Part shown: positions 19,503-47,358 of the stretch, piece after piece
Layout: each line of letters begins with the position of its first letter
How positions within the stretch are numbered: position 1 is the stretch's first letter
Assembly (NCBI GenBank): GCA_964017835.1
Contig: CAXHMP010000001.1
Coordinates: 9,820 to 73,819 of the forward strand
Length of the DNA: 64,000 nt
Origin: an uncultured Alphaproteobacteria bacterium
GTDB lineage: Bacteria > Pseudomonadota > Alphaproteobacteria > Rs-D84
Direction of reading: 5' to 3'
The notes under the pieces: model-generated
What the model saw: the letters and a program-made list of their open reading frames with translations, nothing else
Told to the model about the DNA's origin: nothing
Database searches by the model: none
Program-made: the position numbers and the translations under genes

Positions 19503-19579
19503 GCGAGCGTAGCTCAGTTGGCTAGAGCGCAACCTTGCCAAGGTTGAGGTCGAGGGTTCGAGCCCCTTTGCTCGCACCA
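19503..19579 (+). tRNA. tRNA-Gly(GCC)
   Basis: 77-nt cloverleaf: GCGAGCGTAGCTCAGTTGG...CCTTGCCAAGG...GGTTCGAGCCC...CACCA. Confidence 0.9.
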
Positions 19580-19580
19580 A
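19528..19580. repeat. attL: 53-bp core identical to attR, formed by the 3' part of tRNA-Gly
   Basis: Exact direct repeat with 47305..47358. Confidence 0.85.
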
Positions 19581-19707
19581 GGATTCCGCGGGATTTCGTC
19601 AGAATTCCCGCGATTTTTTATTTCATTTTGTTTCATAAAATTTCATGGATTTATATTGTTTTTCAATAAGTTTCACAAAATTTTAGCACAAAATATAGCA
19701 CAAAAAT

Positions 19708-20721
19708 TCAATCGAATGTTGCGCGCGCGATTTTTATCTTATCTTCGGTCAAGAATTTGGCATATCTCTGGGTCATTTTAGGGGATTTGTGGCCTAAATG
19801 AACCTGGGCGGCATACAGTGAATTTGTTGCCCGCACGACCGCAGTTCCCGAACCGTGCCGGACATCGTGGAAAGTATATTTATGTGGGGGAAATCCTGCG
19901 CGGCGACATGCCGCCGACCATGCGGTTTTAATGTCTTTGATTGGCTTGTCCTTATACATGATGACATATTCCCCTGTGCGCGGCAACGACTGCAATAGCT
20001 CCACCAAATGGCGCGGCATGGCGACGGTATGCAGGCGACCGCCCTCAAGTGTCTTGTCTTTCACGCGTTTTAAAATAAGACCATGTTCAAAATCAATCTC
20101 GTCCCAGCGCAGAGATAGCACGTTTTCACGGCGAAAACCTGTATAATACGCGATATCCATTGCCAGGCGCAGATGTGGCGCGGCCGCGTTCATTATCGCC
20201 AGGCGGTCATTGTTATCGACCAAGCCGATGCGTCCGTCCGGCTCGCGTTCGCGGAATTCCAGTGGACGAACATCGGGGGCGCGGTATCGCCATTTTTTGA
20301 GACAGGTGGTAATCACAGACGACAGGACGACCAGATGCCGGTTGATTGTGCCAGCGGCACGGCCGTCACGTTTCATGGCATAAATATAATCGTTGATGTC
20401 GGCGGCGGTTATTTTGGAAAAGATTTTGTCTGCGCCAAAAAAATCTGACATTTGGCGCAAAACATAAAAGACATTGCGGGGGACGGTGTATTTTTGTGCC
20501 TCGCGGGTGTAAAATTCGCCAAAAGCGGCGTTGACGGTAATGTCGTCATTATTGGCCGGGGCCAGCAAATCGGCCTCGGCCTGACGCGCGACAGCTATGG
20601 CTTTATCGCGTCCAGATTCGTGGGTTGAAATGCGGATAATTTGCGCCCGGCCGTTGACTTTGACCGATATGCGCGCCTGGTAATACGGCGTCCCTTTTCT
20701 TTTATACAGTTTATAAGGCAT
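19708..20721 (-). CDS. int: Tyrosine recombinase (phage integrase)
   Basis: C-terminal HDVRHG, LGHKS and MTQRYAKF catalytic R-H-R-Y motifs. A P4-like N-terminal arm-binding domain is present. Confidence 0.9.
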   Translation of the reverse strand: MPYKLYKRKGTPYYQARISVKVNGRAQIIRISTHESGRDKAIAVARQAEADLLAPANNDDITVNAAFGEFYTREAQKYTVPRNVFYVLRQMSDFFGADKIFSKITAADINDYIYAMKRDGRAAGTINRHLVVLSSVITTCLKKWRYRAPDVRPLEFREREPDGRIGLVDNNDRLAIMNAAAPHLRLAMDIAYYTGFRRENVLSLRWDEIDFEHGLILKRVKDKTLEGGRLHTVAMPRHLVELLQSLPRTGEYVIMYKDKPIKDIKTAWSAACRRAGFPPHKYTFHDVRHGSGTAVVRATNSLYAAQVHLGHKSPKMTQRYAKFLTEDKIKIARATFD

Positions 20722-20882
20722 TGGCTTTTTACGTCCTGAGTTATGTCATCGATGTAAAAGCGCATGCGTCCGCCGTCCATGAAAAACGGAACTTGTCCCA
20801 TGTTGACTTTCCGGCGAAAGCAGTTATAGGATTTTCCAGCGATGCGCGCGGCCTCTACAATTCCGACGTGTTTCCTTGTCAT
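20595..20882 (-). CDS. xis: AlpA/Xis-like excisionase (HTH DNA-binding protein)
   Basis: HTH segment VGIVEAARIAGKSYNCFRRKV. SD aaagggga upstream. Its 3' end overlaps the int start in another frame. Confidence 0.55.
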   Translation of the reverse strand: MTRKHVGIVEAARIAGKSYNCFRRKVNMGQVPFFMDGGRMRFYIDDITQDVKSQCLINCIKEKGRRITRRAYRSKSTAGRKLSAFQPTNLDAIKP

Positions 20883-21074
20883 GTTTTCCCCTTTCCTTGG
20901 TATAAGTTATCAGTATGATTTATATCCTTTTCCATTTGCTTTTTGCACCGCAACAAGGGCAGATAATGCGAAAATAGCGACCATGCGTATTTTCTTTTAT
21001 TTCCTGCACAATCCCCTTAGATGATTCATATGGACAATTGGAACAAACACTATCATACGGTTTCAGACTGCCAT

Positions 21075-21356
21075 TCATTCGTTATCCTGTTTTGTTATAG
21101 ATGTGATTTCGGACAATATCTCTTGGGGATGGCAGTATTCATCAAGCGAGCCTATAAACTCTTCCGCAACGGTCAACGCCAACGAAATTTTACCCAACTC
21201 GTCTTGTGCTTTCTTGCCGTCTATAAGGGCTTGCACTATCTCAATAAACAAATGCTCTTTCCATAGAATACATTTACTATTAGAACAGGAATATTCTATA
21301 AAATCTGTTTCATATAATTCCGCCCCACAGAAAGGGTATTTAAGTTTATCTGCCAT
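21075..21356 (-). CDS. Hypothetical Cys-containing (zinc-ribbon-like) prophage protein
   Basis: 93 aa with CG...CSNSKC spacing. Located in the moron region. Confidence 0.3.
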   Translation of the reverse strand: MADKLKYPFCGAELYETDFIEYSCSNSKCILWKEHLFIEIVQALIDGKKAQDELGKISLALTVAEEFIGSLDEYCHPQEILSEITSITKQDNE

Positions 21357-21802
21357 AGTTTCAGTATCCTGTCAATTGCGCCATTCGGAAAAAACCAGAT
21401 ATGACGCACGTTTGCAATATTGATAACATCGGTGTCGGCTGGAAAGAATTCAACACCAGTAGATTCGCCGAGTCCAATATCACGTTTAATTTCCATAATT
21501 TCATCCCATGTTATACCGTCTGCATATCTACGCGTGGAGGGATTCCATTCATTGCGCTGGATGGATATTTTTGTGTCGGCCGGAACATTCCAGACCATTA
21601 CTGTAAATTTTTTTGACCGCCATACCTCGCGCAAATCCATTGCATGCGAGGTATAAGGCAAAGACTTGTCCCCGTCTAGCACCATTGTCAATTTTTCGGG
21701 ATAAGAGGCAATCAGTGCGCGCTTATGCTTGGCTAGTGCGCGTCGTTGCTCGCGATTCAATTCACGGTCGTCAAAATAATCACGCCGGTCCATTTGTTGC
21801 AT
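21296..21802 (-). CDS. Hypothetical prophage protein
   Basis: 168-aa ORF of unknown function. Confidence 0.35.
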   Translation of the reverse strand: MQQMDRRDYFDDRELNREQRRALAKHKRALIASYPEKLTMVLDGDKSLPYTSHAMDLREVWRSKKFTVMVWNVPADTKISIQRNEWNPSTRRYADGITWDEIMEIKRDIGLGESTGVEFFPADTDVINIANVRHIWFFPNGAIDRILKLWQINLNTLSVGRNYMKQIL

Positions 21803-21816
21803 TTTTTTTGTCCTCC

Positions 21817-22342: not shown

Positions 22343-22687
22343 TTAAAACGGAATATCGTCACCGACCAGGGCTGATGTCGTTGCTACGGTTGCCGGTGCG
22401 GCCGCGGGCTGTGTAGCAGGTTGCGCATATCCGTTATCCTGACGCTGTATTTCAAACGGCACCGGCTGGAAAACAACCCGTTGTAGCTGTTGCAGGATTA
22501 TAGCCATTGACGCCAATTCGTTCGGGAACAGATTTATTTTTGATTCCACCCATTCGCCGGTTTGGTCTTTGCTGGCCCGTGCCAAGGTAACGGAAAAATA
22601 GCCCTGTTTTCCCTGTTCTTTGGGTTCGTTCCAAAAAGCCGCCCCCTTTACAGTGCCGATATTTACGCGATAGTTTTTGTTTGACAT
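22343..22687 (-). CDS. ssb: Single-stranded DNA-binding protein
   Basis: OB-fold-like N-terminus and the canonical acidic tail DDIPF. Confidence 0.7.
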   Translation of the reverse strand: MSNKNYRVNIGTVKGAAFWNEPKEQGKQGYFSVTLARASKDQTGEWVESKINLFPNELASMAIILQQLQRVVFQPVPFEIQRQDNGYAQPATQPAAAPATVATTSALVGDDIPF

Positions 22688-22691: not shown

Positions 22692-23615
22692 TTACTCCTT
22701 TACTTTCTTTTTGGTTATACGCAGAGACCCTGCGACTTTGGTTTCTTTGGAATAACGTTCAACGACACCAGGCAAGTCGCGCTTTATTGCCGCCGTGTCA
22801 ATCGTCATCCGCGTTGACGGCGCGGTCATTGCCGCAACGTATTCGCCAAATTCTGCGCGCGTTATGCCGTCGTCGGCCATTTTCTGCTTTAAGGCGGTCT
22901 TGAATTCGTCCACCATTGCAGTCAGACGGTCAATCAGTGCCAGAGCTTTGTTGACCCGGGCGACCGGGGATTCGCCCATAAGGGCCACGGCGTCACATAC
23001 GGTGTTGCCCAAGATGTCCTCGATAGTTTCGCCGGCGGCCAGGCGCGCGCGGCCGTCAATGACATCGCGGCAGAACTGCGCCACGGCCGGCACGATTTGG
23101 TTATTGAAATAATCCGGGTCAGCATCAACCCAAAATCCCTCGGTTTCGCCAATTTGGTCGCCGTTGCGCAGGCCAAACACAATGCGCGCGCGTTTCAGCC
23201 CCCGTGCCGCCAGGTAAAACTGCACCTGAGCCCGGTAATATTCCGGCAGCACACCATTAAACGGCGTTGATGATGTTTTGCATTCAATCAGAATCTTTTC
23301 GCCGTCCGGCATGCAGCCGATACCGTCAAAATGACAGATGACAGGAAATGCAAACGACACCGGGCCGAATGACGGATTTTCCATCACCAGGGAATCGTCA
23401 GTCAGTTCATAACCGGCGGTCAGTGCGTCAAAATCAATCAGGGGGCGTTCTTTGGCATGGCCGAACCGTGTGGCGGCCGTGGAAAAATTGCGCCGTTCCT
23501 GGGTTATTTTTTCACGCAATAATCCACTGCGTGTTTTCCAAGGGGATATCCCCATAATGGCAGCGATGTCAGAGCCGCCGATGTATTGTGTGCGGTCGCC
23601 AAGTTCGTTATTCAT
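22692..23615 (-). CDS. YqaJ-like viral recombinase exonuclease (PD-(D/E)XK)
   Basis: N-terminal YIGGSDIAAIMG YqaJ signature. It is paired with a RecT-like gene. Confidence 0.7.
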   Translation of the reverse strand: MNNELGDRTQYIGGSDIAAIMGISPWKTRSGLLREKITQERRNFSTAATRFGHAKERPLIDFDALTAGYELTDDSLVMENPSFGPVSFAFPVICHFDGIGCMPDGEKILIECKTSSTPFNGVLPEYYRAQVQFYLAARGLKRARIVFGLRNGDQIGETEGFWVDADPDYFNNQIVPAVAQFCRDVIDGRARLAAGETIEDILGNTVCDAVALMGESPVARVNKALALIDRLTAMVDEFKTALKQKMADDGITRAEFGEYVAAMTAPSTRMTIDTAAIKRDLPGVVERYSKETKVAGSLRITKKKVKE

Positions 23616-24393
23616 CGATGATACCCCCCGTCATTTGCAGCTGTTCCACAATTTCTTGCTTGCGCGTAGTGCCGGCGGCCGACAGCAGTTCAATCGGACA
23701 TGACTGCGCATATTTTTTTAATGTTTCGCCGATTTCGGTTATGGTTTTACAAGCCCTGATTTCATTTTGCACCGTGACGGGCAACTGTTCCGGCGTGGGC
23801 GGCGCGGATACGACCTCTGCCTCTATTGCGGTCAGGGCGTCAATGGGTTCAGATTCAACGCGAACTGGTTCGGTGGTGGGCACGCTCTTTTTGCGCGGTG
23901 TGGGTGCGTCGTCAAAACTGGCGACCTCCTCGGCGCAATACAGGCCGGATAAAACCTCTGGCGCCAATGCGCGGATGGCCTCGACCTGGGCGCGAGCACG
24001 CAACATTGCGGCGGGATATTTTTCCCAGCCACTGCCGCCGCGAACCAGGCCAATTTTGCGTGCGCGCTCAATCGTCCATTCAACATCAATACAGCAACCG
24101 TCAATTTCGGCGTGACATTTTGCAACCGTGTCGGATGTTTCGAGCCACTGCAATTTACCGCCGGCCTTGCGAAAACGTCCAAAAACGGCAGATGATTTTA
24201 ATGCTGGGCGACCCTTTACGATGTCATATTCCTGCATCGCGGCCATTGGATGCTTGCCCTCGGCCTGGGCCATAAGTAACAATGTCGCGACCTGTGGTTC
24301 GTTATAACCGCCGAATAAACCAGATGCGGCGCAGTATTTCGCCATTGCGCCGATTGTCTGTCCGGCCGGCAATTCAACAATTTGATTTCCCAT
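23608..24393 (-). CDS. RecT/Bet-like single-strand annealing protein
   Basis: Located immediately upstream of the YqaJ exonuclease, at a length consistent with RecT. Sequence similarity is modest. Confidence 0.55.
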   Translation of the reverse strand: MGNQIVELPAGQTIGAMAKYCAASGLFGGYNEPQVATLLLMAQAEGKHPMAAMQEYDIVKGRPALKSSAVFGRFRKAGGKLQWLETSDTVAKCHAEIDGCCIDVEWTIERARKIGLVRGGSGWEKYPAAMLRARAQVEAIRALAPEVLSGLYCAEEVASFDDAPTPRKKSVPTTEPVRVESEPIDALTAIEAEVVSAPPTPEQLPVTVQNEIRACKTITEIGETLKKYAQSCPIELLSAAGTTRKQEIVEQLQMTGGIIDE

Positions 24394-25046: not shown

Positions 25047-25241
25047 TTATTTTTTCTTTGGACGGCCGCGTGGACGCGTGGCGGCGTCAGAGCGCACGAA
25101 ATCGACCAGCTGGGGATAGTCGGCGCAAAAAACAATAGACCCCCGCGATTTCCGCTTTATGGCGGTATTCAGACTGATTTTTTTCTTTTTTGCGTATGCA
25201 GATAAACTGCCGCGTAAATCTGACGGAGGTGTTTTCATCAT
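25047..25241 (-). CDS. Small basic AT-hook-like DNA-binding protein
   Basis: C-terminal RPRGRPKKK. Confidence 0.3.
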   Translation of the reverse strand: MMKTPPSDLRGSLSAYAKKKKISLNTAIKRKSRGSIVFCADYPQLVDFVRSDAATRPRGRPKKK

Positions 25242-25783
25242 TTAACGACCGGGGTAAAGGTTGCGCATATGTGCGGATTTTTTGGGTCAATCGAAAATGT
25301 ATAATGCAATTCCGCAATTTGTTTCTGGCCGTCATTTTCCAAAATCCCCGCGCGTTGCATTGCGTCAAAAATAATTTTGGTCGCGCCGGCGGCAATGTTG
25401 TCCGGGTCGCGGCGGGCGTTTTTAGAGCAAAAGTGAATGTCAACCGCAACAGGCGTTGACAACGGCGTGCGCGGCAAATATGGAACGACGGTGTTCATTG
25501 CCTGGCGTTTTAATTTTGCACCAACAAAGCGATTGCAGCGGTCAGCGTCAATAATTTGATTCAATGACGGCAATTCGCCCGGAATCATAACGCACAAGGA
25601 AAACACCGTCCGTGATTGCAAGTTGTTCCATTTTTGCGCCAACGCGTCCAGGTTGGCGTCATGCGCGACATAATCGCAACCGTTCGGACATTCCGGATTT
25701 TGGCATCGGACGGCAAACGGATTTATGTCGTCAAAATACGGATACGCGCCACATTTGGCGCATGGTTTAATTTGCGTTTGCAT
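25238..25783 (-). CDS. rusA: RusA-family Holliday junction resolvase with N-terminal zinc ribbon
   Basis: RDPDNIAAGATKIIFDAMQRAGILENDG matches the RusA catalytic Asp cluster. N-terminal CxxC..CxxxC zinc ribbon. Confidence 0.7.
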   Translation of the reverse strand: MQTQIKPCAKCGAYPYFDDINPFAVRCQNPECPNGCDYVAHDANLDALAQKWNNLQSRTVFSLCVMIPGELPSLNQIIDADRCNRFVGAKLKRQAMNTVVPYLPRTPLSTPVAVDIHFCSKNARRDPDNIAAGATKIIFDAMQRAGILENDGQKQIAELHYTFSIDPKNPHICATFTPVVK

Positions 25784-26905: not shown

Positions 26906-27348
26906 ATTTTACCGTTATGGTAAAAACGGCGCAGCGCCGCGTTGCGCCACAGCGAAACGTCCCAACGACGCAGAGTCGTCAGCCGTTTTTTCATGCTTTC
27001 TGCGTATTGATATTGCAGATACGGGTCGCCGGGGGCCGGTGTTTCGTCCGGTTCAAAAAACTGGGCTAGGCGGGCCTCTAAATCTTCCAGGGTGGGCGGT
27101 GTTGTTTTATTCTTGTCAAAAAGAGCATAGTTCGCGATGGCGTTTTTTATCGTCTTTTCCGTATAGTTGTTCAAAGACGCATCCCATTCATCGCGTATGC
27201 GTTCCAGGGCGGCGGTGTCCGGTGTGGCGTTTTCGTCAGCCGTCATGGCGTCCAGTTCCGGGATTCCGTATCGACCCCATTTGGACTTTATTCGGGTCAA
27301 TGCCAGCGCGGCCTTGCCCTGTGATTTTGTTGTTGATATTTTTTGCAT
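26716..27348 (-). CDS. Hypothetical prophage early protein
   Basis: 210-aa ORF that partly overlaps the neighbouring ORF in another frame. Confidence 0.35.
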   Translation of the reverse strand: MQKISTTKSQGKAALALTRIKSKWGRYGIPELDAMTADENATPDTAALERIRDEWDASLNNYTEKTIKNAIANYALFDKNKTTPPTLEDLEARLAQFFEPDETPAPGDPYLQYQYAESMKKRLTTLRRWDVSLWRNAALRRFYHNGKMWSPAWENFTVTCAQIDSEIIHYLSRQIIQWDSTTNPDAAALVATLRRELSELRRIITSEKVR

Positions 27349-28148
27349 TATGTTCCCCTGGTTGGTGTGTCAAGAATGGCGAAAGGATTATTTGCTGGCG
27401 ACGCGGCGGCCACTCGGCCGGGTGGAATTTTGTGGCTGAATCCGGTGCGTTCCCAGGTTCGCACAGCCGCGTGCCAGTCTGTCATTTGTCGGGTCGAACC
27501 CTTTGGTATCCAGTTGCGCGTGGCGTAATGGTCCACAAAATGCTGTGGGTCAATGCCGTTTTTGCGTGCGGCGCAGTATTCCGCGACCATTTCCACCGTC
27601 GGTGGCGTAAATTTTGATTTTTTTGATTGATTTGATTGTTTTTGCGGCGCGTCGGCCGTTCTGGAAAACAAATCGGCGGCCAGCGTTTTTTCTGAATCCG
27701 AATTTTTCCTCGCGCGCGTAGTGGATGTATTTATATTATTTTTATTATTTATAATATTACAGTTATTGTTTATTGGATGAAGTAAAGGGGGTGTGGGGGA
27801 AATGGAATTTGTGTCGGAAATGTCATTTTTTTGGCTTTGTGTATACGTTTGGTCCTGGGTTTCTGCGGTGTTTGAGGTGGTATGAAAATCAAAATCACTT
27901 TTTGATTTTTTTGAATTATTTTGATTTTTTTTGATTTTTGGACGACCTGCACCAGGACGACGACCGCCGCGGTTATCTTTGGCGGATAAGCGGTCTTTTA
28001 TCATCTCAAAAGCGAGCGATAAAGCCGGTGGCATTTCTTGGGTGGTTGTGCCGGTAAAAAAATATTCCAGGGCGGCGATGCCAATTTGTGCACGTTCCGC
28101 GTCGGATAAACGTTGAATCAGCGCAGAAATGCCGACGTGACCCTCCAT
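27348..28148 (-). CDS. Prophage early protein with a low-complexity Asn/Ser/Thr/Lys-rich linker (possible replication organizer)
   Basis: SD aaggaaggg sits before the ATG at 28148 (MEGH...). It is the first gene of the leftward early operon. Confidence 0.4.
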   Translation of the reverse strand: MEGHVGISALIQRLSDAERAQIGIAALEYFFTGTTTQEMPPALSLAFEMIKDRLSAKDNRGGRRPGAGRPKIKKNQNNSKKSKSDFDFHTTSNTAETQDQTYTQSQKNDISDTNSISPTPPLLHPINNNCNIINNKNNINTSTTRARKNSDSEKTLAADLFSRTADAPQKQSNQSKKSKFTPPTVEMVAEYCAARKNGIDPQHFVDHYATRNWIPKGSTRQMTDWHAAVRTWERTGFSHKIPPGRVAAASPANNPFAILDTPTRGT

Positions 28149-28169
28149 AATTCCCTTCCTTTTTTGCAA

Positions 28170-28846: not shown

Positions 28847-28877
28847 TTTTAATGAACACAAGGTTCATTTTATGCAA

Positions 28878-39031: not shown

Positions 39032-39041
39032 GTAAAAAAAG

Positions 39042-39299: not shown

Positions 39300-39708
39300 C
39301 GGTTATTACAGGTTTTTTCCGGATGGCCCTATGGATATATCTCTTGCCAGGGAAAAGGGGCTGGATTTACTGCCCTATAATGGATTTTATACCTTTCCGG
39401 CCTTGATTTCTGCACCGACATATTCATTAGTTGGAAGAGAGTCAGCGGTTGCACAGTATGCTGGCGACCCTGTTGACGTCATGGGGGTAAACAAATGGGT
39501 TTATTCATTGTCGGCTAAAAAAATAGTGCCGGCCGGAAGCGTTGGGGCGCAAGCAGACATATCATCTGACGGGACGCGGATAATTAGCATAGGTATCCCT
39601 CAGGCGGGTGCAATGATTGGCAAGTCCGGTCGATTAAAATCATGCGTCATTTCATGGAAACCAGAAAACGGTATTTGTGTCATTCAGGGGGTGGAGTTGT
39701 GGACATAA
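39280..39708 (+). CDS. Hypothetical tail/baseplate protein
   Basis: ORF 39250..39708, with the start trimmed to an internal Met. Confidence 0.25.
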   Translation: MRIYITNGYYRFFPDGPMDISLAREKGLDLLPYNGFYTFPALISAPTYSLVGRESAVAQYAGDPVDVMGVNKWVYSLSAKKIVPAGSVGAQADISSDGTRIISIGIPQAGAMIGKSGRLKSCVISWKPENGICVIQGVELWT

Positions 39709-40061
39709 TAAAAGCAAAAGCGCAATCGGGGAATGTTCAGTCAGATGACGGTTTTGTCATTACCGCATATGTTGCCGGAGCAGGCAAAGGCGAATCTGAC
39801 GGTGTGGCGATATTGGATAAAGACAAATGCGTCTACTTTCCATTAAATGCCTGGCAAGACTTGCTAAGTGTTATAAATGGCCTGGTGGGGTTATGTGACA
39901 GCCTTGCTGAAAATATTGAAAATGCAATCGTCGGGGCTGTGACAAATGGCTCACAAACAACGCAAACGGTCACGTCGGCAGGCCCTGGATTGGCGACGTT
40001 TAAAAACGCGGTTACAAAAATTAAAAACGATATGGATAAATTGAAAAAGGAACTTAAATGA
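39642..40061 (+). CDS. Hypothetical tail/baseplate protein
   Basis: The start probably lies downstream of 39642 (a GTG near 39690). Confidence 0.25.
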   Translation: MRHFMETRKRYLCHSGGGVVDIIKAKAQSGNVQSDDGFVITAYVAGAGKGESDGVAILDKDKCVYFPLNAWQDLLSVINGLVGLCDSLAENIENAIVGAVTNGSQTTQTVTSAGPGLATFKNAVTKIKNDMDKLKKELK

Positions 40062-40342
40062 TTGATATCAAGTCCCTGGGGCCAGACGTAAAAAAAGACA
40101 ATGACGGCGACAAATACAAGGCAATAAATTTATTGTCTGTTCAACTGCAAGATAAAAACTATGCGCCAGATTTTGGCGTTGACTTGGATTTTTTTATCAA
40201 CAGCGATTATCAAATAAGTCCGGTGACGTTCGTTACACACCTTATGAAAAGACTGACCGACCATTCAATATCAGTTAAACAGGTCCAAAATCAAATTGAT
40301 GATTTTATCGCGGATGTCGCAATCAATATAGAGGATAAATAA
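40058..40342 (+). CDS. Hypothetical baseplate protein
   Basis: Coupled ORF. Confidence 0.25.
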   Translation: MIDIKSLGPDVKKDNDGDKYKAINLLSVQLQDKNYAPDFGVDLDFFINSDYQISPVTFVTHLMKRLTDHSISVKQVQNQIDDFIADVAINIEDK

Positions 40343-40344
40343 AA

Positions 40345-41151
40345 ATGCCATACAATTCCAAAACCGGGTATGTCCCACATACATTTGACGAATGGATGTT
40401 TAATCAATTTATGCCACAAATCAATAAAAGATATAAAACGTCATATACCGCAGAAACGTTTGTCGGCACGCAGTGGTATGATATTTTATATCCGTTGGTC
40501 CAGGGGCTGATGGAGGGTGACGCTGAATTCGCAGATGTGTGGGTAAAATTGACTGAGTTTTTCGACCAGGTAAATGCACGCATGAATAACCCCGCCAGTG
40601 TCCCCGACGGGATAATCGAACAATTTGAACGCATGGGTATAGTTGCATCATTGCGACCGGTCTCGGCGGAAACAGCGGGAAAAATAGGGGTTTGCGTGTT
40701 TGCTGACACGTCAAGCCAGGCAATGCAGGCAAAAATAACCCAGGTCCTGACGGATTGTGTTGTCGGTGGCGTTTGGCCGGACGGCGATAAAAGCGCGACC
40801 GCAATTTTAAATAATGGACAACAAATTACCTGGCGGTGGTATGAGCCGACAGATAAGACATTAGATTTGCGTCTACGCGTTTATTACGTAAACAGTCACG
40901 GCAAATCATTGCCAACAGCGGACGATATTACCCAGGATTTGCGAAAAAAAATAGGTCAGCGTTATCGTTATGGCATGCCCTTTGTGCCCGAGCAAATGTA
41001 TCAGACGGCTGTCGATGCGTCGTATGCTGTTAAATTAAAATTAGAATGGTCGGAAGACGGCGGCACGACATGGTCTGGCGAAATTTTATCGGCCACATTT
41101 AATCAAAAGCTGATTTTTTCAAATATAAATGTTTTGTTCGAGGCGGTATAA
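40345..41151 (+). CDS. Baseplate-like structural protein
   Basis: 268-aa ORF in the tail module. Confidence 0.3.
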   Translation: MPYNSKTGYVPHTFDEWMFNQFMPQINKRYKTSYTAETFVGTQWYDILYPLVQGLMEGDAEFADVWVKLTEFFDQVNARMNNPASVPDGIIEQFERMGIVASLRPVSAETAGKIGVCVFADTSSQAMQAKITQVLTDCVVGGVWPDGDKSATAILNNGQQITWRWYEPTDKTLDLRLRVYYVNSHGKSLPTADDITQDLRKKIGQRYRYGMPFVPEQMYQTAVDASYAVKLKLEWSEDGGTTWSGEILSATFNQKLIFSNINVLFEAV

Positions 41152-41691
41152 ATGGTCCAAATTCTAAATAATAAAGACGGGGCGGTAGGTAAAGAGTTTT
41201 GGGATGTCCATAAGCCTATTTTTCAAAGCCGAGCCGCCGCATTGGCGACATTTAAAAATGCCCCGCATCGTATTCAAAATTTTTTAGAAATAGCCCAGCA
41301 GTATTCCGATATCGGCGGATACCTGAGCAAAGACCAGTGGTTTCGGGTGGCAGAATATATATTTGGCAATGGCCGCCGCATAGGCACGTTAAATTTTTAT
41401 ATCGATATATTTAAACTGATTTTTGGAAATAACGCCGACATCGAGTTTAATATATCAACACCGTCGCCAGGGATGCTGGAAATAACGATTACTTATGCCG
41501 GCGGCGGGTTATATAAGCGCGTCGTTGATACGCGTGAGCCGCGCGTTGTTGATTCCGGGGATGAGCGTGTCGTTTCAATAATCGATAACATCATAACCGT
41601 TGAGAATATTCGGGGCTTGCTTTCAAAAATAGTTCCCAGCGGCATATTTGCCAAAGTATCAATAAAAGCAGTTTCAGGAGTTCAGAAATGA
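41152..41691 (+). CDS. Hypothetical tail protein
   Basis: Coupled ORF. Confidence 0.3.
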   Translation: MVQILNNKDGAVGKEFWDVHKPIFQSRAAALATFKNAPHRIQNFLEIAQQYSDIGGYLSKDQWFRVAEYIFGNGRRIGTLNFYIDIFKLIFGNNADIEFNISTPSPGMLEITITYAGGGLYKRVVDTREPRVVDSGDERVVSIIDNIITVENIRGLLSKIVPSGIFAKVSIKAVSGVQK

Positions 41692-42017
41692 GTAAAAAAA
41701 TTAGTGAATTGCAATCGCTTGAACAAGGGCAGATTGAGGGGGCAATGGAGTTTGAGATTGAACAAGAAGGGGTATCCTATAAAGTTTCTCTCGCTTTGTT
41801 GATTGCTTTTTTGGGAACGTATTTTATGGCGGCAAAAAAAGAATCTGCCCTGATGCCCAAAAGTGGCGGCGAGTTTGTTGGTCCTGTGATACACAAAGAC
41901 GAAAATCCTACGGAATTGTTTGCTGGGCGTAACATTAAAGCAATCCCCGCGGCCAATGACCCTGGAACAGGGGCGCCGTTGGCCACCGGTCGTGTTTTGC
42001 TGACTTATGAAGAATAA
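41688..42017 (+). CDS. Hypothetical tail protein
   Basis: Coupled ORF. Confidence 0.25.
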   Translation: MSKKISELQSLEQGQIEGAMEFEIEQEGVSYKVSLALLIAFLGTYFMAAKKESALMPKSGGEFVGPVIHKDENPTELFAGRNIKAIPAANDPGTGAPLATGRVLLTYEE

Positions 42018-42028
42018 AAAGGGACATT

Positions 42029-42748
42029 ATGAGCATCTATCTGGGAAACGACGATGGTAAGAGCCGAAAGGTCAAATCTGCTTATTATGGCGTGAATAAC
42101 GTCGCAAAGCGTATAAAACATGGTTACATCGGAGTTGATGGCGTTGCCCGATTGTTTTATAGCGGTGACCCGGTTCTGATTTTTGAACAGTCAACCCCCG
42201 GAATATATACCCAGTCATGGGGGCCAGGACTGTATTTAATAACGGAAATTGGCGGCGGTGCGTCGGGTATGGTTATGGCTTCGTCTGGTAAGGGATTTCG
42301 GTTTCAGGGTGGCTGTGCGGGAACATTGCAGGCAATCGTCCGCGTAAGCCAATCGTGCACAGTAAAATTGACTGTTGGGGCTGGTGGAGCAAAAGCGTCT
42401 GCCGGCACGATGACGGCGGGTGGTGATTCACGAATTGACGGAATATCTGACGCGGTGCTGATTGCCGGCGGGGGAAAAACGGACATAGATGCGGCTGCCG
42501 TGGTTGGCGGCAGTGTTGGCGATAACCAGGTCAGTGGAACAGCCATTCAAAGTGTGGCAATCAACAATCCGACCACCATTAGAGGTGGGGCACAGTCCTA
42601 TACAATCAAGCCTGGTGGTTCGATTCCAGCATGGCGCGACACATACGAAAAAAAGAATACAAACTGGCCCGAAGACCCGTTACGCGGTAAAGGCGGCGGT
42701 CCAAATGCGGATGGCGAAAGTGGCTTTATCAGAGTGTTAAAAATATAG
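42029..42748 (+). CDS. Gly-rich tail fiber-associated protein
   Basis: Gly-rich repeats (GGGASG, GAGGAKASAG). Confidence 0.35.
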   Translation: MSIYLGNDDGKSRKVKSAYYGVNNVAKRIKHGYIGVDGVARLFYSGDPVLIFEQSTPGIYTQSWGPGLYLITEIGGGASGMVMASSGKGFRFQGGCAGTLQAIVRVSQSCTVKLTVGAGGAKASAGTMTAGGDSRIDGISDAVLIAGGGKTDIDAAAVVGGSVGDNQVSGTAIQSVAINNPTTIRGGAQSYTIKPGGSIPAWRDTYEKKNTNWPEDPLRGKGGGPNADGESGFIRVLKI

Positions 42749-42762: not shown

Positions 42763-44892
42763 ATGTCCCAAAAAACAAATCAAGTAAAAATTATTCGTCA
42801 GAATAAATGGTTTCGTTTGTGGATTGACCCTCGCAATTTTAATCCAAACGACCCACTGTCTTTTGAACACGGATTCGACATCTCGTTGTCCGTTGATTTT
42901 GACAATGACACATTGGCAAAAAATAACTATAACCGTTATGAAATAGCCCCACAGGCGTTTTCTATAAAAGAAAACATCGTCAAGTTCAAGACCGGTCAAA
43001 CAATGCCGTTTAAAGCATTTTGGTCTGAGTGTCTGAATAAAATCAACGGTCTCATTTCCAGCGTTGGCATAAATTCAGGCGAAATAATGGCCGAACAGGC
43101 CCGCGCGACTGATGCAGAAAAAGTCTTACGGGCGGGGATTGCCGCACTGGAAAAGGCGATAATCAGTAAAATAACATTGCCCAGCGCCATTTATTCGGTA
43201 GAACTGGAAAACCGACCCGAGGTTGTAAATATCAAAGTCAAATCCCGTGAAACAGATAAAGGCCAGGATACAACTGTTATTTTTCCGTTTCCAGTCGCGA
43301 ATGGCGAACATATCGGTTTGATGAATCCGGAAACGTTTCGCACTGTCACAGAACACGAAAAGCGCCTGGCGGCAATAGAGGGTCGCGCCGAACGCTGGCC
43401 GGTTAGACTGCCGGCGATGGACGTTTCACAGGCGCAATATCAGGCGGCCTATGAACAGGCGGCTAGGGTGTCTGCCGGCACGATTCCGCCAGACGGAACA
43501 ATGTTAGATAATCTGACGAATAACCACCTGATAAAATATTATAGCAATGCGCCAGCTGGCAGTTCGGAACATTGGATTGACCGCGGGGAGGATACCGTCG
43601 GTCAGGCATCAAACGATACAGCCGGGATTGTAAAAGGCGACGCGATTACACCGGGAAAGATATTTGTTGAGAGCGACGGCTCAATGTCCGTCAATGGGTG
43701 GGATTCAGCCATTGCTGAGGTAAGAGCCGCGGCGGAAAACGCTGCTGAGCATGCGACTTTTGCAAAAAAAGATGCTGATGCCGCGGCGGCCAGTTCGGTC
43801 GCCGCAGAAGAAAACGCCGCGCGTGCGATAAACGCGGCCGATGTCGCCGCCTCCGCAGACATTGCGGCCCGCGTCGCGGCGGAAAATGCCGCAGAAAGCG
43901 AGGGCGTCGCCAAACAAGCATCAGATACGGCTTGCGATTGGGCGACAAAAATGAACGGTCCTGTCGCTGATGATGAATACAGCGCGAAACATTATGCGAC
44001 CAATGCGGCCGCGTCAGAGTCTGGGGCAAAGAGTTCAGAAAAAAATGCGTTTGATAGTGCAACCTCGGCGCACAATGAGGCACAGGCCGCCAGCGATTCC
44101 GCGACCAGCGCCGCCGCCAGTGCGGCCGCCGCGGAAGAATCTGCACAGAATACTCAGCAAAACGAACAGCTGTTACAAGGGCATGTTGAACAGGCTGCGG
44201 CGTCAGCCAAAACGGCGCAATCATCGGCGGCCAGCGCAACCAGTTCGGCAACGACCGCCACAAACAGCGCAAATGCGGCGACCGCGTCAGCCAATGACGC
44301 CGCCGGCTCTGCAAGCAACGCCAGAAAATCAGAATTGGCGGCCGGAGCTAGTGCATCTGCAGCTGATGCGTCATTGACGGCGGCAAATAAAAGTCAAGTA
44401 GCGGCGGCAAATTCTGCTGATAATGCCGCCAGTTCAGCGGCCAGCGCGTCTGATTCTGCCGATTTAGCGGCGGGGGCAGCGACCAGCGCGGAGCAATCAG
44501 CAATAAATGCTGCCGGCTCTGCCGCCAGTGCCGAAACCAGTGCCACAGCTGCCGATGCGGCAAAAGCCGCGGCCCAGGTCAGCCAACAGGCGGCGGCTGG
44601 CAGTGCCGCGTCAGCGGAACAAAACGCACATGCCCTGGATGTCGCGGTTGTAAATGCGGCGGCGTCTGCGCAGACGGCGGAAAGGTCTGCGGCCAGCGCG
44701 GCCGGTTCGGCCGTCGCTGTCGATGCGGTCAAGCAAGAGATGATTGATTTTGTAGAACAACAAAAATCTGAATTCGCCACAAAGGGCGACCTGGAAGAAC
44801 TTTACCGGAAAGCCTTCGGGCCTCAAGACTATGGGTCAATTCAAGACCCTGTTTTAGAAGCGGTGGATTTCGGGTCAATGGAGGTAAAATAA
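42763..44892 (+). CDS. Tail fiber protein with long Ala/Ser-rich repeat region
   Basis: 709 aa. Residues 330-650 are low-complexity A/S/N/E repeats typical of phage fibers. Confidence 0.6.
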   Translation: MSQKTNQVKIIRQNKWFRLWIDPRNFNPNDPLSFEHGFDISLSVDFDNDTLAKNNYNRYEIAPQAFSIKENIVKFKTGQTMPFKAFWSECLNKINGLISSVGINSGEIMAEQARATDAEKVLRAGIAALEKAIISKITLPSAIYSVELENRPEVVNIKVKSRETDKGQDTTVIFPFPVANGEHIGLMNPETFRTVTEHEKRLAAIEGRAERWPVRLPAMDVSQAQYQAAYEQAARVSAGTIPPDGTMLDNLTNNHLIKYYSNAPAGSSEHWIDRGEDTVGQASNDTAGIVKGDAITPGKIFVESDGSMSVNGWDSAIAEVRAAAENAAEHATFAKKDADAAAASSVAAEENAARAINAADVAASADIAARVAAENAAESEGVAKQASDTACDWATKMNGPVADDEYSAKHYATNAAASESGAKSSEKNAFDSATSAHNEAQAASDSATSAAASAAAAEESAQNTQQNEQLLQGHVEQAAASAKTAQSSAASATSSATTATNSANAATASANDAAGSASNARKSELAAGASASAADASLTAANKSQVAAANSADNAASSAASASDSADLAAGAATSAEQSAINAAGSAASAETSATAADAAKAAAQVSQQAAAGSAASAEQNAHALDVAVVNAAASAQTAERSAASAAGSAVAVDAVKQEMIDFVEQQKSEFATKGDLEELYRKAFGPQDYGSIQDPVLEAVDFGSMEVK

Positions 44893-44894
44893 AT

Positions 44895-45140
44895 ATGGCA
44901 CAACAAATTCAGTTGCGACGCGGAACAACAGACGAGCATGCAAATTTTACGGGCGCGCAAGGCGAGGTAACCGTTGACACGTTATTGAAATCATTGGTTG
45001 TCCACGACGGCGAAACACTTGGCGGATTTGTAACAGTAAATCTTGATATGCTCATTCGGCTGTTAAATGCTTTATGCTCGATGCAGGGGTGGAAGTGTCA
45101 GGACGGGGGTTTGGTGCTAGATTTTGGAGAAATGTCATGA
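44895..45140 (+). CDS. Short protein with the conserved phage tail-fiber N-terminal motif (MAQQIQLRRGT...)
   Basis: N-terminus matches the common tail-fiber N-terminal domain. Only 81 aa. Confidence 0.35.
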   Translation: MAQQIQLRRGTTDEHANFTGAQGEVTVDTLLKSLVVHDGETLGGFVTVNLDMLIRLLNALCSMQGWKCQDGGLVLDFGEMS

Positions 45141-45412
45141 TTATCGAAACCATAATTACGGCGGTTGTCGCGCCAACATTGCTGTTTGTATTCCAATCTA
45201 TAAAAGAAAATCGTCATGGCATAAAAAAAGATATTCGAGAAATTCGAATTTCGAATTTGCGACTTGAACTGCTAAATGCGATACAGCATAACCCGGACGA
45301 CGAGATAACGATTTTGGCCTTATATGATAAATACGTCAGCTTGGGCGGCAATTCGTATATCAAAGCATATGTTGCCCGCTGGAAAGAGGAACGGAGGTCA
45401 AAAAATGCTTAA
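45137..45412 (+). CDS. Small membrane protein (possible holin/antiholin)
   Basis: One N-terminal TM. Located at the start of the lysis cassette. Confidence 0.3.
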   Translation: MIIETIITAVVAPTLLFVFQSIKENRHGIKKDIREIRISNLRLELLNAIQHNPDDEITILALYDKYVSLGGNSYIKAYVARWKEERRSKNA

Positions 45413-45677
45413 ATTTATTAAAGGATTGTTCTTGGATGACGTCCAAGAACCCTGCGTCGGTCGAATGGCTCTTTTTGTCGGTTTAATATTGACAGCATAT
45501 ACGGCAACTGCACATCTTGAAACCGCTGGGGCTGTAAGTAAGGCTGAGGCCGTGGTGCGCTGTGCGCCCGGGATTATCGGTCTGCTGGCTTATTGTTTTT
45601 CGCGTTTAATGGAATGTAAAGAATTTGTCGCAGAGGTTGCGACAAAAATTGCCGGCCGACGCAAGATAAAAAAATAA
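45405..45677 (+). CDS. Holin (two-TM class)
   Basis: SD ggaggt. Two TM segments and a charged C-terminus. Confidence 0.5.
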   Translation: MLKFIKGLFLDDVQEPCVGRMALFVGLILTAYTATAHLETAGAVSKAEAVVRCAPGIIGLLAYCFSRLMECKEFVAEVATKIAGRRKIKK

Positions 45678-45686
45678 AGGCGGAGT

Positions 45687-45917
45687 ATGAGATATGGTAT
45701 TCTTTTTGCGGTTCTGTGTGGTTTGTGCGGGTATTTTATCGGACAGACGTATTATTCGCGCGGCAGGGCGGATTGTGAACATGAGCATATTATCACAAAT
45801 CAGGAATCGGTGGCGGCGGTTCAGCATGTCCAAGCAACGGTTGCGCGAGATGTTCTTATTACTGGGGTCGCTGACATTCGTCAGCGGTTGCGCGAAAAAT
45901 ACACCATTGCTGATTGA
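45687..45917 (+). CDS. i-spanin (Rz-like)
   Basis: N-terminal TM plus a periplasmic helical domain. Confidence 0.45.
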   Translation: MRYGILFAVLCGLCGYFIGQTYYSRGRADCEHEHIITNQESVAAVQHVQATVARDVLITGVADIRQRLREKYTIAD

Positions 45918-46038
45918 GCCGCCGTGTGCCCCCATATACGGCCATGTGTCTGATTGGGATGTCGTCAGTGACGACTTGGCCCGCAATATATACCGGCATA
46001 ATCTTTTATGCGAACAATTAAAAAAGGAAACTATATGA
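45826..46038 (+). CDS. o-spanin (Rz1-like lipoprotein) overlapping the i-spanin in the +1 frame
   Basis: Lipobox LTFVSGC. The ORF starts inside the Rz-like gene and extends beyond it. Confidence 0.5.
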   Translation: MSKQRLREMFLLLGSLTFVSGCAKNTPLLIEPPCAPIYGHVSDWDVVSDDLARNIYRHNLLCEQLKKETI

Positions 46039-46472
46039 GATTTACATTAAAAGAATGTCTAAACAAGTCTGAAGTTGAACCTGGTGAAATAACGCCAGAA
46101 ATCGCCCGCAATATGCGCGATTTGATTAAAAGGGTAAATTCCTTAGGATGTTCGTTTCCTCGTGCCTGCACGTCGTTTTTACGCGGAAAAGCCAAACAAG
46201 AGGCAATATACCGAAATCGCGCATGTTTGAAAATGCCACCGTTTACCGACGGCAATTTTGATATGTCGCAAGTTCCCATGTCATCAAGACATATGACCGG
46301 CCAGGCGATAGACGTTTGGGACGCGGACGGAAAATTGAAAGCCTGGATAAAGGATAATCCCGGCGCGTTGGAACATGCGGGGTTATGGTGTGAACATTTT
46401 GACAACACACCGGACTGGGTTCATTTTCAATCAGTTCCACCCCGGTCAGGCAAACGATTTTTTCATCCGTAA
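46035..46472 (+). CDS. Endolysin, peptidase M15 family
   Basis: SRHMTGQAIDVWD and DWVHFQ zinc-binding motifs. SD aaggaaa. Confidence 0.7.
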   Translation: MRFTLKECLNKSEVEPGEITPEIARNMRDLIKRVNSLGCSFPRACTSFLRGKAKQEAIYRNRACLKMPPFTDGNFDMSQVPMSSRHMTGQAIDVWDADGKLKAWIKDNPGALEHAGLWCEHFDNTPDWVHFQSVPPRSGKRFFHP

Positions 46473-46500
46473 AGAAACCCGCCAGGTGGCGGGTCTTTTT

Positions 46501-46887
46501 TTATGCGGCCAATGCGCGTCGCACGGCGGAATCAATAAAGCCAGAACGATTGCTTGTGATATTGTCTATTTTACACAAGATGTCCTCAGACAAAATGATG
46601 TTGATTCTTTTGTTTTTGGCTTTCAATGGCAATAAATCAACAATGCCAGCGGTAAATTCATAGTTCTCTTTCCACTCTTGCCAATCCGGCCATTCGGCTT
46701 TGATTTGTTCCAGTGTGCGGGGTTTTGGCATATTTTTCTCGCCGTCGGCATACAATGATAAGGCCTCATGCGCATTGCGCACGGCGTCATCAAAGTTGTC
46801 GCCGGCACTGGTCAGGCCCGGCAGGTCCGGAAACACAACGCCGACCGAATTTTCACCAAATTCAAATAAAGCAACGTATTTTTTCAT
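46501..46887 (-). CDS. hicB: HicB-family antitoxin
   Basis: RNase H-like N-terminal domain plus a C-terminal RHH (SRSGFIDSAVRRAL). Confidence 0.75.
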   Translation of the reverse strand: MKKYVALFEFGENSVGVVFPDLPGLTSAGDNFDDAVRNAHEALSLYADGEKNMPKPRTLEQIKAEWPDWQEWKENYEFTAGIVDLLPLKAKNKRINIILSEDILCKIDNITSNRSGFIDSAVRRALAA

Positions 46888-46914
46888 AACGAACTCCTTT
46901 TTTTGTGGCGGGGC

Positions 46915-47103
46915 TTATTTCAGCCCCGCTTGTTTTAATATTGCCGTCGCCGTTCCTTTTGGCAGGTCTTTGCGCGGGTGCGGTATTATGACCTGTCCAG
47001 GCTTTGACGGGTGTTTGTATTTGTGGTGACTGCCAGTCGTATTGACTAATTCCCACCCGTCTTTTTCTATCGCCTTTATCAAGTCTTTACTGCTGTAATT
47101 CAT
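46915..47103 (-). CDS. hicA: HicA-family mRNA interferase toxin
   Basis: GSHHKYKHP...VIIPHP...GTATAILKQAGL HicA signature. Confidence 0.8.
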   Translation of the reverse strand: MNYSSKDLIKAIEKDGWELVNTTGSHHKYKHPSKPGQVIIPHPRKDLPKGTATAILKQAGLK

Positions 47104-47304
47104 TTTTTACCTTTTTATTACAGACATATTATACACACGATTGTACACACAGTCAAGTAAAAAAACATAAAAAAATTAAAAAATGTGGCACAAAATATAG
47201 CACAAAAATTTTGTGCGCAATTTTTTATTAAAAAATAACTCTTGACTTTTGGCGGAAATACGGGCATTATCTCAAAAAGATGTGTGCGTAAAGGTGTAGC
47301 AATC

Positions 47305-47358
47305 CGCAACCTTGCCAAGGTTGAGGTCGAGGGTTCGAGCCCCTTTGCTCGCACCAAA
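47305..47358. repeat. attR: 3' 53 nt of tRNA-Gly duplicated
   Basis: Identical to 19528..19580. Confidence 0.85.

Follow-up and report, generated by a model that had tools for sequence, protein, structure and literature searches.

With its 24-kb genome, the Bdellovibrio phage phi1402 (NC_015721, 23.9 kb) ranks in the literature as the smallest independent myovirus (PMC3391216). A second Bdellovibrio phage, MAC3UK (OR167113, 23.8 kb), the Vibrio phages 1.155.O and 1.259.O (28-29 kb, Nahant collection) and Dulem virus 29 (PP511380, a 23.5-kb circular genome from lemur faeces) carry a similar virion module; phi1402 and MAC3UK are the 'dwarf myoviruses', the others relatives of theirs. No integrase is annotated in the records of phi1402, MAC3UK, Vibrio phage 1.155.O or Dulem virus 29. 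Vibrio phage XM1, whose virion structure has been solved (PMC10457771), is a more remote point of reference. Here we analyse a prophage in a 64,000-nt stretch of DNA from an uncultured, gut-type alphaproteobacterium (GenBank assembly GCA_964017835.1, contig CAXHMP010000001.1, positions 9,820 to 73,819), which we call the window, and compare it with these phages and with temperate phages that integrate into tRNA genes.

We read the region as an integrated, apparently intact temperate tailed phage, with the integration mechanism and virion type set out below, and put the probability of this reading at about 0.8. The prophage genome, counted with one copy of its attachment core, is 27,777 bp long. 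It is probably functional and may be inducible, a possibility to which the excised, circularly permuted genomes of relatives and purifying selection on the late genes lend indirect support. As an element it is ordinary and works as a typical temperate phage that integrates into a tRNA gene, its left arm resembling that of lambda; its virion lineage is rare and so far not known with an integrase.

Integration into a tRNA-Gly gene

An intact tRNA-Gly(GCC) gene stands at the left end of the element, called by both ARAGORN and Rfam (RF00005, 65.9 bits), and a 53-nt segment of it recurs exactly, at 53 of 53 positions, at the right end (Table 1). Each copy begins on the 5' side of the anticodon stem and ends one base beyond the CCA; identity stops at position 54 (G versus A) and does not extend leftward. 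An exact repeat of this length within 64 kb cannot have arisen by chance. The segment from the anticodon stem to the 3' end of the tRNA is the usual identity block of integrases that cross over in the anticodon loop. A tyrosine integrase gene, whose product matches Pfam PF00589 at 79 bits against a cut-off of 27.1, lies 127 nt inside the left attachment site (attL), and the hicA and hicB genes lie 201 nt inside the right one (attR). The element has a tyrosine recombinase at one end, the 3' part of a tRNA repeated at both ends and an intact tRNA at one of them, as expected of a tRNA-integrating temperate phage.

An earlier note on this DNA had proposed integration into the 3' part of an intact tRNA-Gly(GCC) with an exact 53-bp duplication, and had placed HicAB next to attR; both points are borne out, the latter by Pfam matches above threshold. 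Its attL and the start of its attR agree with ours, but its attR end, 47358, is one base too far and should be 47357. The note also described attR as lacking the 5' half of the tRNA. There is indeed no identity to the tRNA left of 47305, yet the 21 nt on the phage side (47284-47304) form a degenerate 5' half in which 6 of 7 positions can pair with the 3' strand of the acceptor. Because of this pairing, a second, shorter tRNA-like gene is called at 47284-47356 (ARAGORN; Rfam 33.2 bits, gathering score 29). Of the int and xis genes that the note set beside attL, int is confirmed by Pfam and PHROG, whereas xis is a candidate by position, with no family match.

The right boundary is fixed by the host locus. 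Directly right of attR stands a hairpin, AAAATCCCGTCGAAAGGCGGGATTTT, followed by a T-run, and the sequence there, AGTTTAAAATCCCGTCGAAAGGCGGGATTTTTTT, appears again behind two more degenerate tRNA-like units (47405-47648); the right flank is therefore host tRNA-locus DNA. The hairpin right of attL is a different one, and a hairpin with a T-run occupies the equivalent position in three relatives (L015, L016 and L011). The two tandem 128-bp units (47405-47520 and 47533-47648) are themselves heavily G/C-substituted, tRNA-Gly-like sequences that keep the anticodon stem-loop ACCTTGCCAAGG. They are 62-66% identical to the 53-nt core and drew no tRNA call from ARAGORN or from Rfam, even at E<=10; decayed tandem tRNA copies and old attachment-site remnants are both possibilities.

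These features suggest the following course of integration. The integrase would recombine the phage attachment site (attP), which carries the 53-nt copy of the 3' part of the tRNA, with the host tRNA-Gly(GCC) gene, the crossover falling within the anticodon loop. At attL the tRNA gene would thereby be rebuilt, with its 5' part from the host and its 3' part and terminator from the phage, and the displaced 3' part of the host gene would be left at attR.

The arms of the predicted attP fit this picture. Of 11 occurrences of the motif GCACAAAAW in the 64-kb window, 5 lie within ~120 nt of the two cores, on both attachment-site arms. The variant of this repeat is lineage-specific and found at equivalent places in L016 and L011; it differs between lineages, yet is identical on both arms within each phage. 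This pattern fits arm-type integrase sites, which the GCACAAAA repeats, some 100 nt from the core on each side, are likely to be. On the phage side of attR there is also a 29-nt promoter-like block, TTGACTTTTGGCGGAAAT(A/G)CGGGCATTAT, located 13 nt upstream of the degenerate tRNA 5' half. It is near-identical in three lineages (the window, L016 at 10640-10680 and L021 at 60-100 on the minus strand), whereas its surroundings have diverged, and its spacing resembles that of the host tRNA promoter at 19462-19490. The attP has the appearance of a whole tRNA gene copy that has decayed but retains a candidate, possibly active promoter.

Joining 47104-47357 to 19581-19707 gives a predicted attP that aligns collinearly with the real attP of L016. 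The two share the order hicA promoter, tandem GCACAAAA/GACACAAAA repeats, 29-nt block, core, terminator and repeats, and in both the last repeats adjoin the stop codon of int. Across the junctions, the predicted attP reads ...GGTGTAGCAATC, the 53-nt core and GGATTCCGCGGG..., and the predicted bacterial site (attB) ...GGCTAGAG, the core and AGTTTAAAATCCC...

Relatives at the same site and in excised form

Five other lineages or assemblies have an integrase 64-82% identical to that of the window beside the same tRNA-Gly core. The 82%-identical integrase is found on 42 Logan contigs, and all of those that were read end exactly 169 nt past int, inside the core, as would be expected if the 53-nt repeat breaks assembly at k=31. 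A phage of the type found in the metagenome-assembled genome (MAG) SIG50, with an integrase 64% identical, is integrated at tRNA-Gly on contigs of 66, 93 and 117 kb (L025, L026 and L015).

Excised forms of relatives are also present in public assemblies. The 29,370-nt scaffold L016 has the order int-attP-hicA-hicB-lysis-fibre around the same core, and its integrase protein is identical to the one integrated beside the tRNA in SIG50 (L015); L016 carries the attP junction of a relative. Contigs of 29,284-29,473 nt from independent assemblies break either at the attachment core or in the rep gene, so the ~29.3-kb genomes of these relatives are circularly permuted. Together with the 27,777 bp of the window prophage, these lengths lie in or close to the ~24-29 kb of phi1402-like dwarf myoviruses.

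The nearest prophages lie in MAGs labelled Alphaproteobacteria (SIG50 and SUUQ01000003.1). The window flanks, read from translations, hold queA, tgt, a lysyl-tRNA synthetase-like gene and a choloylglycine-hydrolase-like gene, and the related flanks L018 and L015 have Pfam TGT, Queuosine_synth and CBAH calls. The window flanks also contain the gene of a 355-aa membrane protein (18091-19158) and a glycosyltransferase gene (47673-48740). A search for the Neisseria DUS motif as a pointer to the host found no copy. On L018 and L019 (European Nucleotide Archive (ENA) contigs of 254 kb and 37 kb) a different prophage sits at the same tRNA-Gly in a related genome with the same tgt-queA flank; it has a 72%-identical integrase and Rad52-like, pRha and Sipho_Gp157 early genes. 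The tRNA-Gly gene is therefore a recurrent integration site, or hotspot, of this integrase family. Exact-protein look-ups of tgt, the 355-aa membrane protein, the integrase and the capsid found no record, and no isolate from uncultured Alphaproteobacteria hosts of this kind came up in the phage collections searched. Elsewhere in the window, positions 1000-4000 have a G+C content of 0.38-0.39, against ~0.48-0.53 in the rest, and adjoin a tRNA-Glu gene (3684-3759, minus strand); this stretch could be another horizontally acquired segment.

A virion module of the dwarf myovirus lineage

When 25 kb of the prophage were compared by megablast with 50,697 phage records, no match appeared, and 30 late proteins scanned with PHROG and Pfam gave almost no hits. 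Within 30711-42748, signals were confined to the Mu-F-like protein and one neck protein, and ~20 of 24 virion proteins have no match in either collection. At the protein level, 12 late proteins match MAC3UK in order by tblastn, at 21-36% identity: the large terminase (TerL), portal, Mu-F-like protein, scaffold, capsid, neck protein, sheath, tube, a 130-aa protein, orf152, orf94 and orf268. The collinear head-tail module that characterizes dwarf myoviruses is likewise found in Dulem virus 29, Vibrio phage 1.155.O and the relative L010. Judged by homology and gene order, the virion module belongs to the lineage of phi1402/MAC3UK, Vibrio phage 1.155.O and Dulem virus 29. Because it is both homologous to and collinear with the phi1402/MAC3UK module, the particle most likely has a small head of the HK97 fold and a short contractile tail.

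As expected of Caudoviricetes, which are tailed dsDNA phages, the module has a large terminase, a portal and a major capsid protein of the HK97 fold. TerL is 34% identical to the annotated TerL of Enterococcus phage phiFL2A; the call of the small terminase gene upstream was adopted from the 98%-identical L009. For the portal we found 135 representative homologues of similar length. The window protein alone had no Pfam match, but 67 of the 91 aligned homologues match Phage_portal_3, and a profile of these 91 sequences matches the solved XM1 portal (7kln) at 1.4e-10, which supports the portal call. A profile of four sequences had given only spurious matches to designed TIM barrels and was superseded by the larger one. 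By tblastn, the window portal also matches the phages that the sheath candidate matches.

An AlphaFold2 (AF2) model of the capsid, of moderate quality and built from a 10-sequence alignment (predicted local distance difference test score (pLDDT) 62, predicted template modelling score (pTM) 0.64), points to the HK97 fold. Foldseek matches in the Protein Data Bank (PDB) were phage capsids (Sf11, XM1, BB1, T1 and RcGTA) and encapsulins and nothing else, at E values of 5e-05 to 1e-03, and the top 14 (5e-05 to 8e-04) were all of these two kinds. In sequence, the protein is 24-29% identical to the annotated capsid genes of MAC3UK and Dulem virus 29. Homologues are few: among 5.8 billion protein clusters the capsid and the 305-aa sheath candidate have 10 each, and a capsid profile scan of IMG/VR and JGI metagenomes added three distant relatives (one and two, respectively) at 26-28% identity. 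Searching PDB sequences with profiles of the capsid, sheath, tube, orf268 and orf94 yielded no meaningful match.

The sheath candidate fits the predicted contractile tail. In tblastn searches the annotated sheaths of MAC3UK and Vibrio phage 1.155.O align with 92-98% of it at 32-33% identity, and the counterparts in phi1402 and Dulem virus 29 match it no less well; identity to the tail sheath of Vibrio phage 236O40-1 is 29.5%. P0017, a homologue of greater length, shares 46% identity with the sheath of MAC3UK. At 305 aa the window protein is at the short end of the range of the group (~315-437 aa). Its weak Foldseek matches are all sheaths of contractile systems (phage 812, Milano, PVC, AFP and Streptomyces CIS).

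The neck proteins have homologues in MAC3UK and Vibrio phage 1.155.O that are annotated as such, and the tube candidate and the following 130-aa protein share 27% and 21% identity with the genes that come after the sheath gene in MAC3UK. In the MAC3UK record a tape measure stands at the position equivalent to our 337-aa candidate, and the syntenic 336-aa gene in L010 has a weak match to a tape-measure PHROG (1.3e-04). In the baseplate block, orf94 has homologues annotated as 'putative baseplate wedge protein' in MAC3UK and as 'baseplate complex protein' in Dulem virus 29. The labels that the earlier note had given from terminase to fibre prove right, although their basis is fold-level evidence and distant homology, mostly beyond the reach of family searches.

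Integrity of the prophage and alternative explanations

The late genes could be compared with a near-identical copy. Over 17.4 kb (window 29129-46516) the late module is 98.5% identical to that on L009, a 213-kb ENA contig from another sample, whereas the early region (26306-28758 compared) is only ~73% identical; the phages are therefore mosaic. The boundary between the two parts is sharp and lies near the regulator and small terminase genes. Across 29 late genes we counted 175 synonymous and 78 non-synonymous differences, for a ratio of non-synonymous to synonymous differences per site (pN/pS) of 0.13. All seven single-base indels are intergenic, late gene lengths are equal and no conserved gene contains a stop codon or frameshift. 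The late genes are under purifying selection.

The element might nonetheless be a recently inactivated, cryptic prophage, complete in appearance but deprived of excision, replication or assembly by missense or regulatory changes that sequence does not reveal. Scans of GTDB genomes and JGI metagenomes gave 0 matches to the exact attB and attR-flank patterns and found neither the attP nor an empty attB junction of the window phage itself, so its own excised form was not seen there. In a protein-cluster search the integrase and the capsid each occurred on a single NCBI contig. The window also lacks a gene of 189-212 aa that follows the helix-turn-helix (HTH) regulator in L001, L009 and L015, and its early region, at ~73% identity to the nearest relatives, has no close comparator by which its integrity could be judged. 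All of this suits a cryptic element. The missing junctions and the lack of a close comparator for the early region also weigh against our preferred reading, as do several points about individual genes. The 95-aa excisionase candidate and two holin candidates match no Pfam or PHROG family; the XRE regulator has HTH_3 and HTH_31 domains but no Peptidase_S24 domain; and no antirepressor, Cro or Q homologue was identified in the prophage. In the tail, the sheath model is of low confidence (pLDDT 51), so that its weak structural matches are suggestive only; the tube candidate and the 130-aa protein have no family or PDB match; the tape-measure candidate has neither a family match of its own nor a direct sequence match to L010; and the baseplate-block proteins have no Pfam, PHROG or PDB match, most being without family-level support. 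Inactivation is nevertheless unlikely in our view, given the open conserved genes, the low late-gene pN/pS and the confinement of indels to intergenic DNA. The attachment cores are still identical at every position, which points to recent integration or ongoing selection, and the arm repeats are intact on both sides.

Two further explanations were considered and rejected. A domesticated phage-derived particle system, that is, a tailocin or gene transfer agent, could be suspected from the small genome, from the presence of the RcGTA capsid among the many HK97-fold matches of the capsid model and from the alphaproteobacterial host, as gene transfer agents are common in that class. Yet an integrase, attachment sites, replication and recombination genes, both terminase subunits, a portal and a lysis cassette lie together in one bounded insert, the relatives are complete, circularly permuted genomes with an attP junction, and the site is a tRNA gene that holds different prophages in related genomes; we regard such a system as very improbable. 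Improbable to the point of dismissal is the idea that the 53-nt repeat merely reflects tandem host tRNA-Gly copies between which phage genes came to lie by chance or through some other mechanism. The further tRNA-Gly-like units right of attR lend it some colour, but they are far less similar to the core than the two cores are to each other, identity in both cores begins abruptly in the anticodon stem and ends one base after the CCA, the phage DNA left of attR aligns with the attP of L016, and relatives carry the same core in attP without host flanks. An integrated, apparently intact temperate phage remains our preferred account.

Early region, lysis genes and hicAB

Features of the locus are collected in Table 1. 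A divergent control region at ~28.2 kb divides the genome. Leftward from it, an early operon runs towards int, through the DUF6291 gene, RusA, RecT, the RecE/YqaJ exonuclease, an SSB-like protein and the xis candidate; the rightward arm comprises the XRE regulator, a predicted promoter and terminator element and then the packaging, head, tail and lysis genes. The recombination module expected from the earlier note is present, with exonuclease, RecT and RusA recognised by PHROG. The SSB-like protein has no Pfam or PHROG match, and its candidate role comes from its C-terminal tip motif and position. The putative replication initiator matches Pfam DUF6291 just below cut-off (1.1e-05), and DUF6291 proteins occur there in relatives too.

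The 95-aa open reading frame (ORF) overlapping the start of int is conserved in relatives (46-69%, tblastn), and we infer that it encodes the directionality factor. Genes called upstream of int in the relatives had been considered as its homologues; alignment rejects them, except in L018.

The note's repressor is present as an XRE-family HTH protein, which we infer to be the lysogeny repressor, but it consists of the HTH domain and lacks an S24 peptidase domain, as do its homologues in relatives, which have HTH domains only. RecA-mediated autocleavage and SOS-type induction therefore cannot be assumed; mitomycin C or UV may induce the phage by another route, but this is not something the sequence predicts. 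A promoter-like site (28189-28216, consensus scan) lies near the regulator gene. A 29-nt direct repeat, CAAG(A)TAAAAAAACTAACAAAATG..., occurs within the early region (24889-24917) and at the start of the regulator gene (28259-28287), its copies 86% identical; it could be a shared operator or leader. Upstream of the small terminase gene, a promoter-like site (28818-28846) is followed ~200 nt later by a terminator-like hairpin (29050-29083). The layout recalls PR'-tR' of lambda, although no Q-like antiterminator was identified in the window phage, and this pair would be the point at which the late operon is controlled.

Behind the tail fibre gene lies an 81-aa ORF consisting of an Mtd_N domain only (Mtd_N being the N-terminal domain of the major tropism determinant); versions in relatives have 81-99 aa. 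No reverse transcriptase or other part of a diversity-generating retroelement was seen in the prophage. The lysis cassette named in the earlier note is confirmed as spanins and an M15-like endolysin by PHROG and Pfam, with the spanins matching PHROGs at 4.6e-05 and 0.006 and a lipobox, FVSGC, visible in translation. The adjacent hicA and hicB genes, both above their Pfam cut-offs, form a type II toxin-antitoxin pair. They have a near-consensus promoter of their own, TTGACT-17-TATAAT (47128-47156, promoter scan), and would be a moron expressed in the lysogen.

Table 1 Features of the prophage and its attachment sites, in window coordinates (aa, amino acids)
Feature	Position	Strand	Basis
Intact host tRNA-Gly(GCC); 3' 52 nt from phage core copy	19503..19579	+	ARAGORN, Rfam
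attL core, 53-nt exact repeat, 3' part of intact tRNA	19528..19580	+	Repeat comparison
Phage-supplied hairpin and T-run, predicted to terminate the rebuilt tRNA gene	19583..19622	+	Read from sequence
Candidate integrase arm-type sites, P' arm: two tandem GCACAAAA(W) copies	19686..19706	+	Repeat comparison
Tyrosine integrase, 337 aa	19708..20721	-	PHROG_1 2.9e-47; Pfam Phage_integrase (PF00589) 4.8e-22
Candidate excisionase/HTH protein, 95 aa, overlaps int start	20595..20882	-	Position
SSB-like protein, 114 aa, ends DDIPF	22343..22687	-	C-terminal tip motif; position beside exonuclease and RecT genes
RecE/YqaJ-type recombination exonuclease	22692..23615	-	PHROG_434 1.6e-37
RecT-type single-strand annealing protein	23608..24393	-	PHROG_561 1.4e-27
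RusA-like Holliday junction resolvase	25238..25783	-	PHROG_1682 2.3e-26
DUF6291-type putative replication initiator, first gene of leftward early operon	27348..28169	-	PHROG_15768 2.9e-21
XRE-family HTH regulator, candidate lysogeny repressor	28246..28758	+	Pfam HTH_3 1.3e-09; PHROG regulator/repressor families
Promoter-like site TTGACT-17-TATAAT, then terminator-like hairpin, upstream of terS	28818..29083	+	Consensus scan only
Small terminase (TerS) candidate, 112 aa	29115..29453	+	Position; PHROG_2412 2e-11 (family of unknown function)
Large terminase	29410..30711	+	PHROG_38 3.1e-37
Portal protein, 346 aa	30711..31751	+	Homologue profile
Mu-F-like head morphogenesis protein	31720..32253	+	Pfam Phage_Mu_F 1.9e-06 (29.0 bits; cut-off 29.6)
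Scaffold candidate	32276-32878	+	Position, synteny with MAC3UK and Dulem virus 29
Decoration/minor capsid candidate, 149 aa	32914-33363	+	Position, synteny; weak Pfam XM1_gp53_minor_capsid 0.003
Major capsid protein, predicted HK97 fold, 303 aa	33564..34475	+	AF2 model and Foldseek
Neck/tail-completion proteins, 155 aa and 140 aa	34735..35617	+	PHROG_222 4.5e-05
Tail sheath candidate, 305 aa	35610..36527	+	Homology to annotated sheaths
Tube candidate (144 aa, 36544-36978) and following 130-aa protein	36544..37376	+	Position
Tape-measure candidate, 337 aa	37452..38465	+	Position
Ten baseplate/tail-tip genes	38465..42748	+	Homology and position
orf94, baseplate-wedge-like	40058-40342	+	Homology to MAC3UK, Dulem virus 29
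orf268	40345-41151	+	Its homologue follows that of orf94 in all four phages
Tail fibre, 709 aa, Ala/Ser-rich	within 42763..45140	+	PHROG tail fibre families 3e-07
81-aa protein, Mtd_N domain only	44895-45140	+	Pfam Mtd_N 1.6e-13
Lysis cassette: two small membrane proteins, overlapping i-spanin/o-spanin, endolysin	45137..46472	+	
VanY/M15-type endolysin	46035-46472	+	Pfam VanY 2.9e-05, just below cut-off
hicB	46501-46887	-	Pfam HicB_lk_antitox 2.2e-20
hicA	46915-47103	-	Pfam HicA_toxin 4.3e-24
Candidate integrase arm-type sites, P arm: three GCACAAAA(W) copies, one inverted	47188..47216	+	Repeat comparison
Promoter-like block TTGACT-17-CATTAT and degenerate tRNA 5' half, phage side of attR	47242..47304	+	
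attR core, 53-nt exact repeat	47305..47357	+	Repeat comparison
Host flank: terminator of the original tRNA gene, followed by two degenerate tRNA-Gly-like units of 128 bp, both with a copy of that terminator	47358..47648	+	

Comparison with described phages

A prophage in a tRNA gene is textbook biology. What this locus adds is that it connects the poorly known phi1402/MAC3UK virion lineage, with its relatives from Vibrio and the lemur gut, both with temperate life and with hosts among the uncultured Alphaproteobacteria. Because so many of its virion proteins are invisible to Pfam and PHROGs and have few homologues, the locus and its relatives offer a ready alignment set for annotating dwarf myoviruses. 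With integrated and excised forms of the relatives both in public assemblies, the attachment site, arm repeats and integrase also make a clean, testable system of integration at tRNA-Gly. More tentatively, and at somewhat less than even odds for the whole combination, the window phage and its relatives (Logan SRR159705xx contigs, MAG SIG50 and ENA contigs) may be the first recognised temperate branch of phi1402-like phages: contractile-tailed, ~28-29 kb in size, with a lambda-like int/xis/RecET arm, using tRNA-Gly(GCC) to lysogenise uncultured Alphaproteobacteria of gut type, ranking with the smallest sheath-encoding temperate phages, and carrying in attP a decayed whole tRNA gene copy with a conserved, possibly active promoter.

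In its integration system the window phage resembles lambdoid and P4-type phages that integrate into tRNA genes. As in those, int adjoins the rebuilt tRNA, whose terminator comes from the phage, the block of identity covers the tRNA from its anticodon stem to its 3' end, repeats stand on both attP arms, and a leftward early operon with RecET-like genes ends in xis-int. Unlike them, it has no identified S24-type repressor, Cro or Q, its virion module is unrelated, and its attP keeps a promoter-like block and the decayed 5' half of the tRNA.

Vibrio phage XM1 provides the best solved-structure match for the window portal (7kln) and one of the best fold matches for the capsid (7kmx). It differs in genome size (38 kb) and in the lengths of its sheath (495 aa), portal (412 aa) and tape measure (479 aa), and the relationship is detectable only by sequence profiles or fold comparison.

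Closer to the window phage are Dulem virus 29 and the Vibrio phages 1.155.O and 1.259.O, the latter two with an annotated tail sheath. Their head-tail modules are collinear with that of the window at 24-35% identity, and their sheath homologues, at ~315-320 aa, are as short as in the window. Their early regions differ and have no annotated integrase, and Vibrio phage 1.155.O has, unlike the window, a 1,084-aa insert gene in its head region. The early and lysogeny genes of the window have no tblastn match in these phages, apart from two weak partial ones to Vibrio phage 1.155.O.

The window phage is set apart from the Bdellovibrio phages phi1402 and MAC3UK by its apparent temperate nature and its host, and its early and lysogeny genes, fibre, lysis genes and hicAB are unrelated to theirs; the sheath of MAC3UK, at 437 aa, is also longer. 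Their late modules, in contrast, are collinear with that of the window, and the products are alike in size: the portal at ~340 aa, the capsid at ~290-300 aa, the tape measure at ~330 aa, the protein of ~130 aa, the baseplate wedge-like protein at ~95-105 aa and the next one at ~270 aa. Like both of these phages, the window phage has a very small genome for a tailed phage with a sheath gene.

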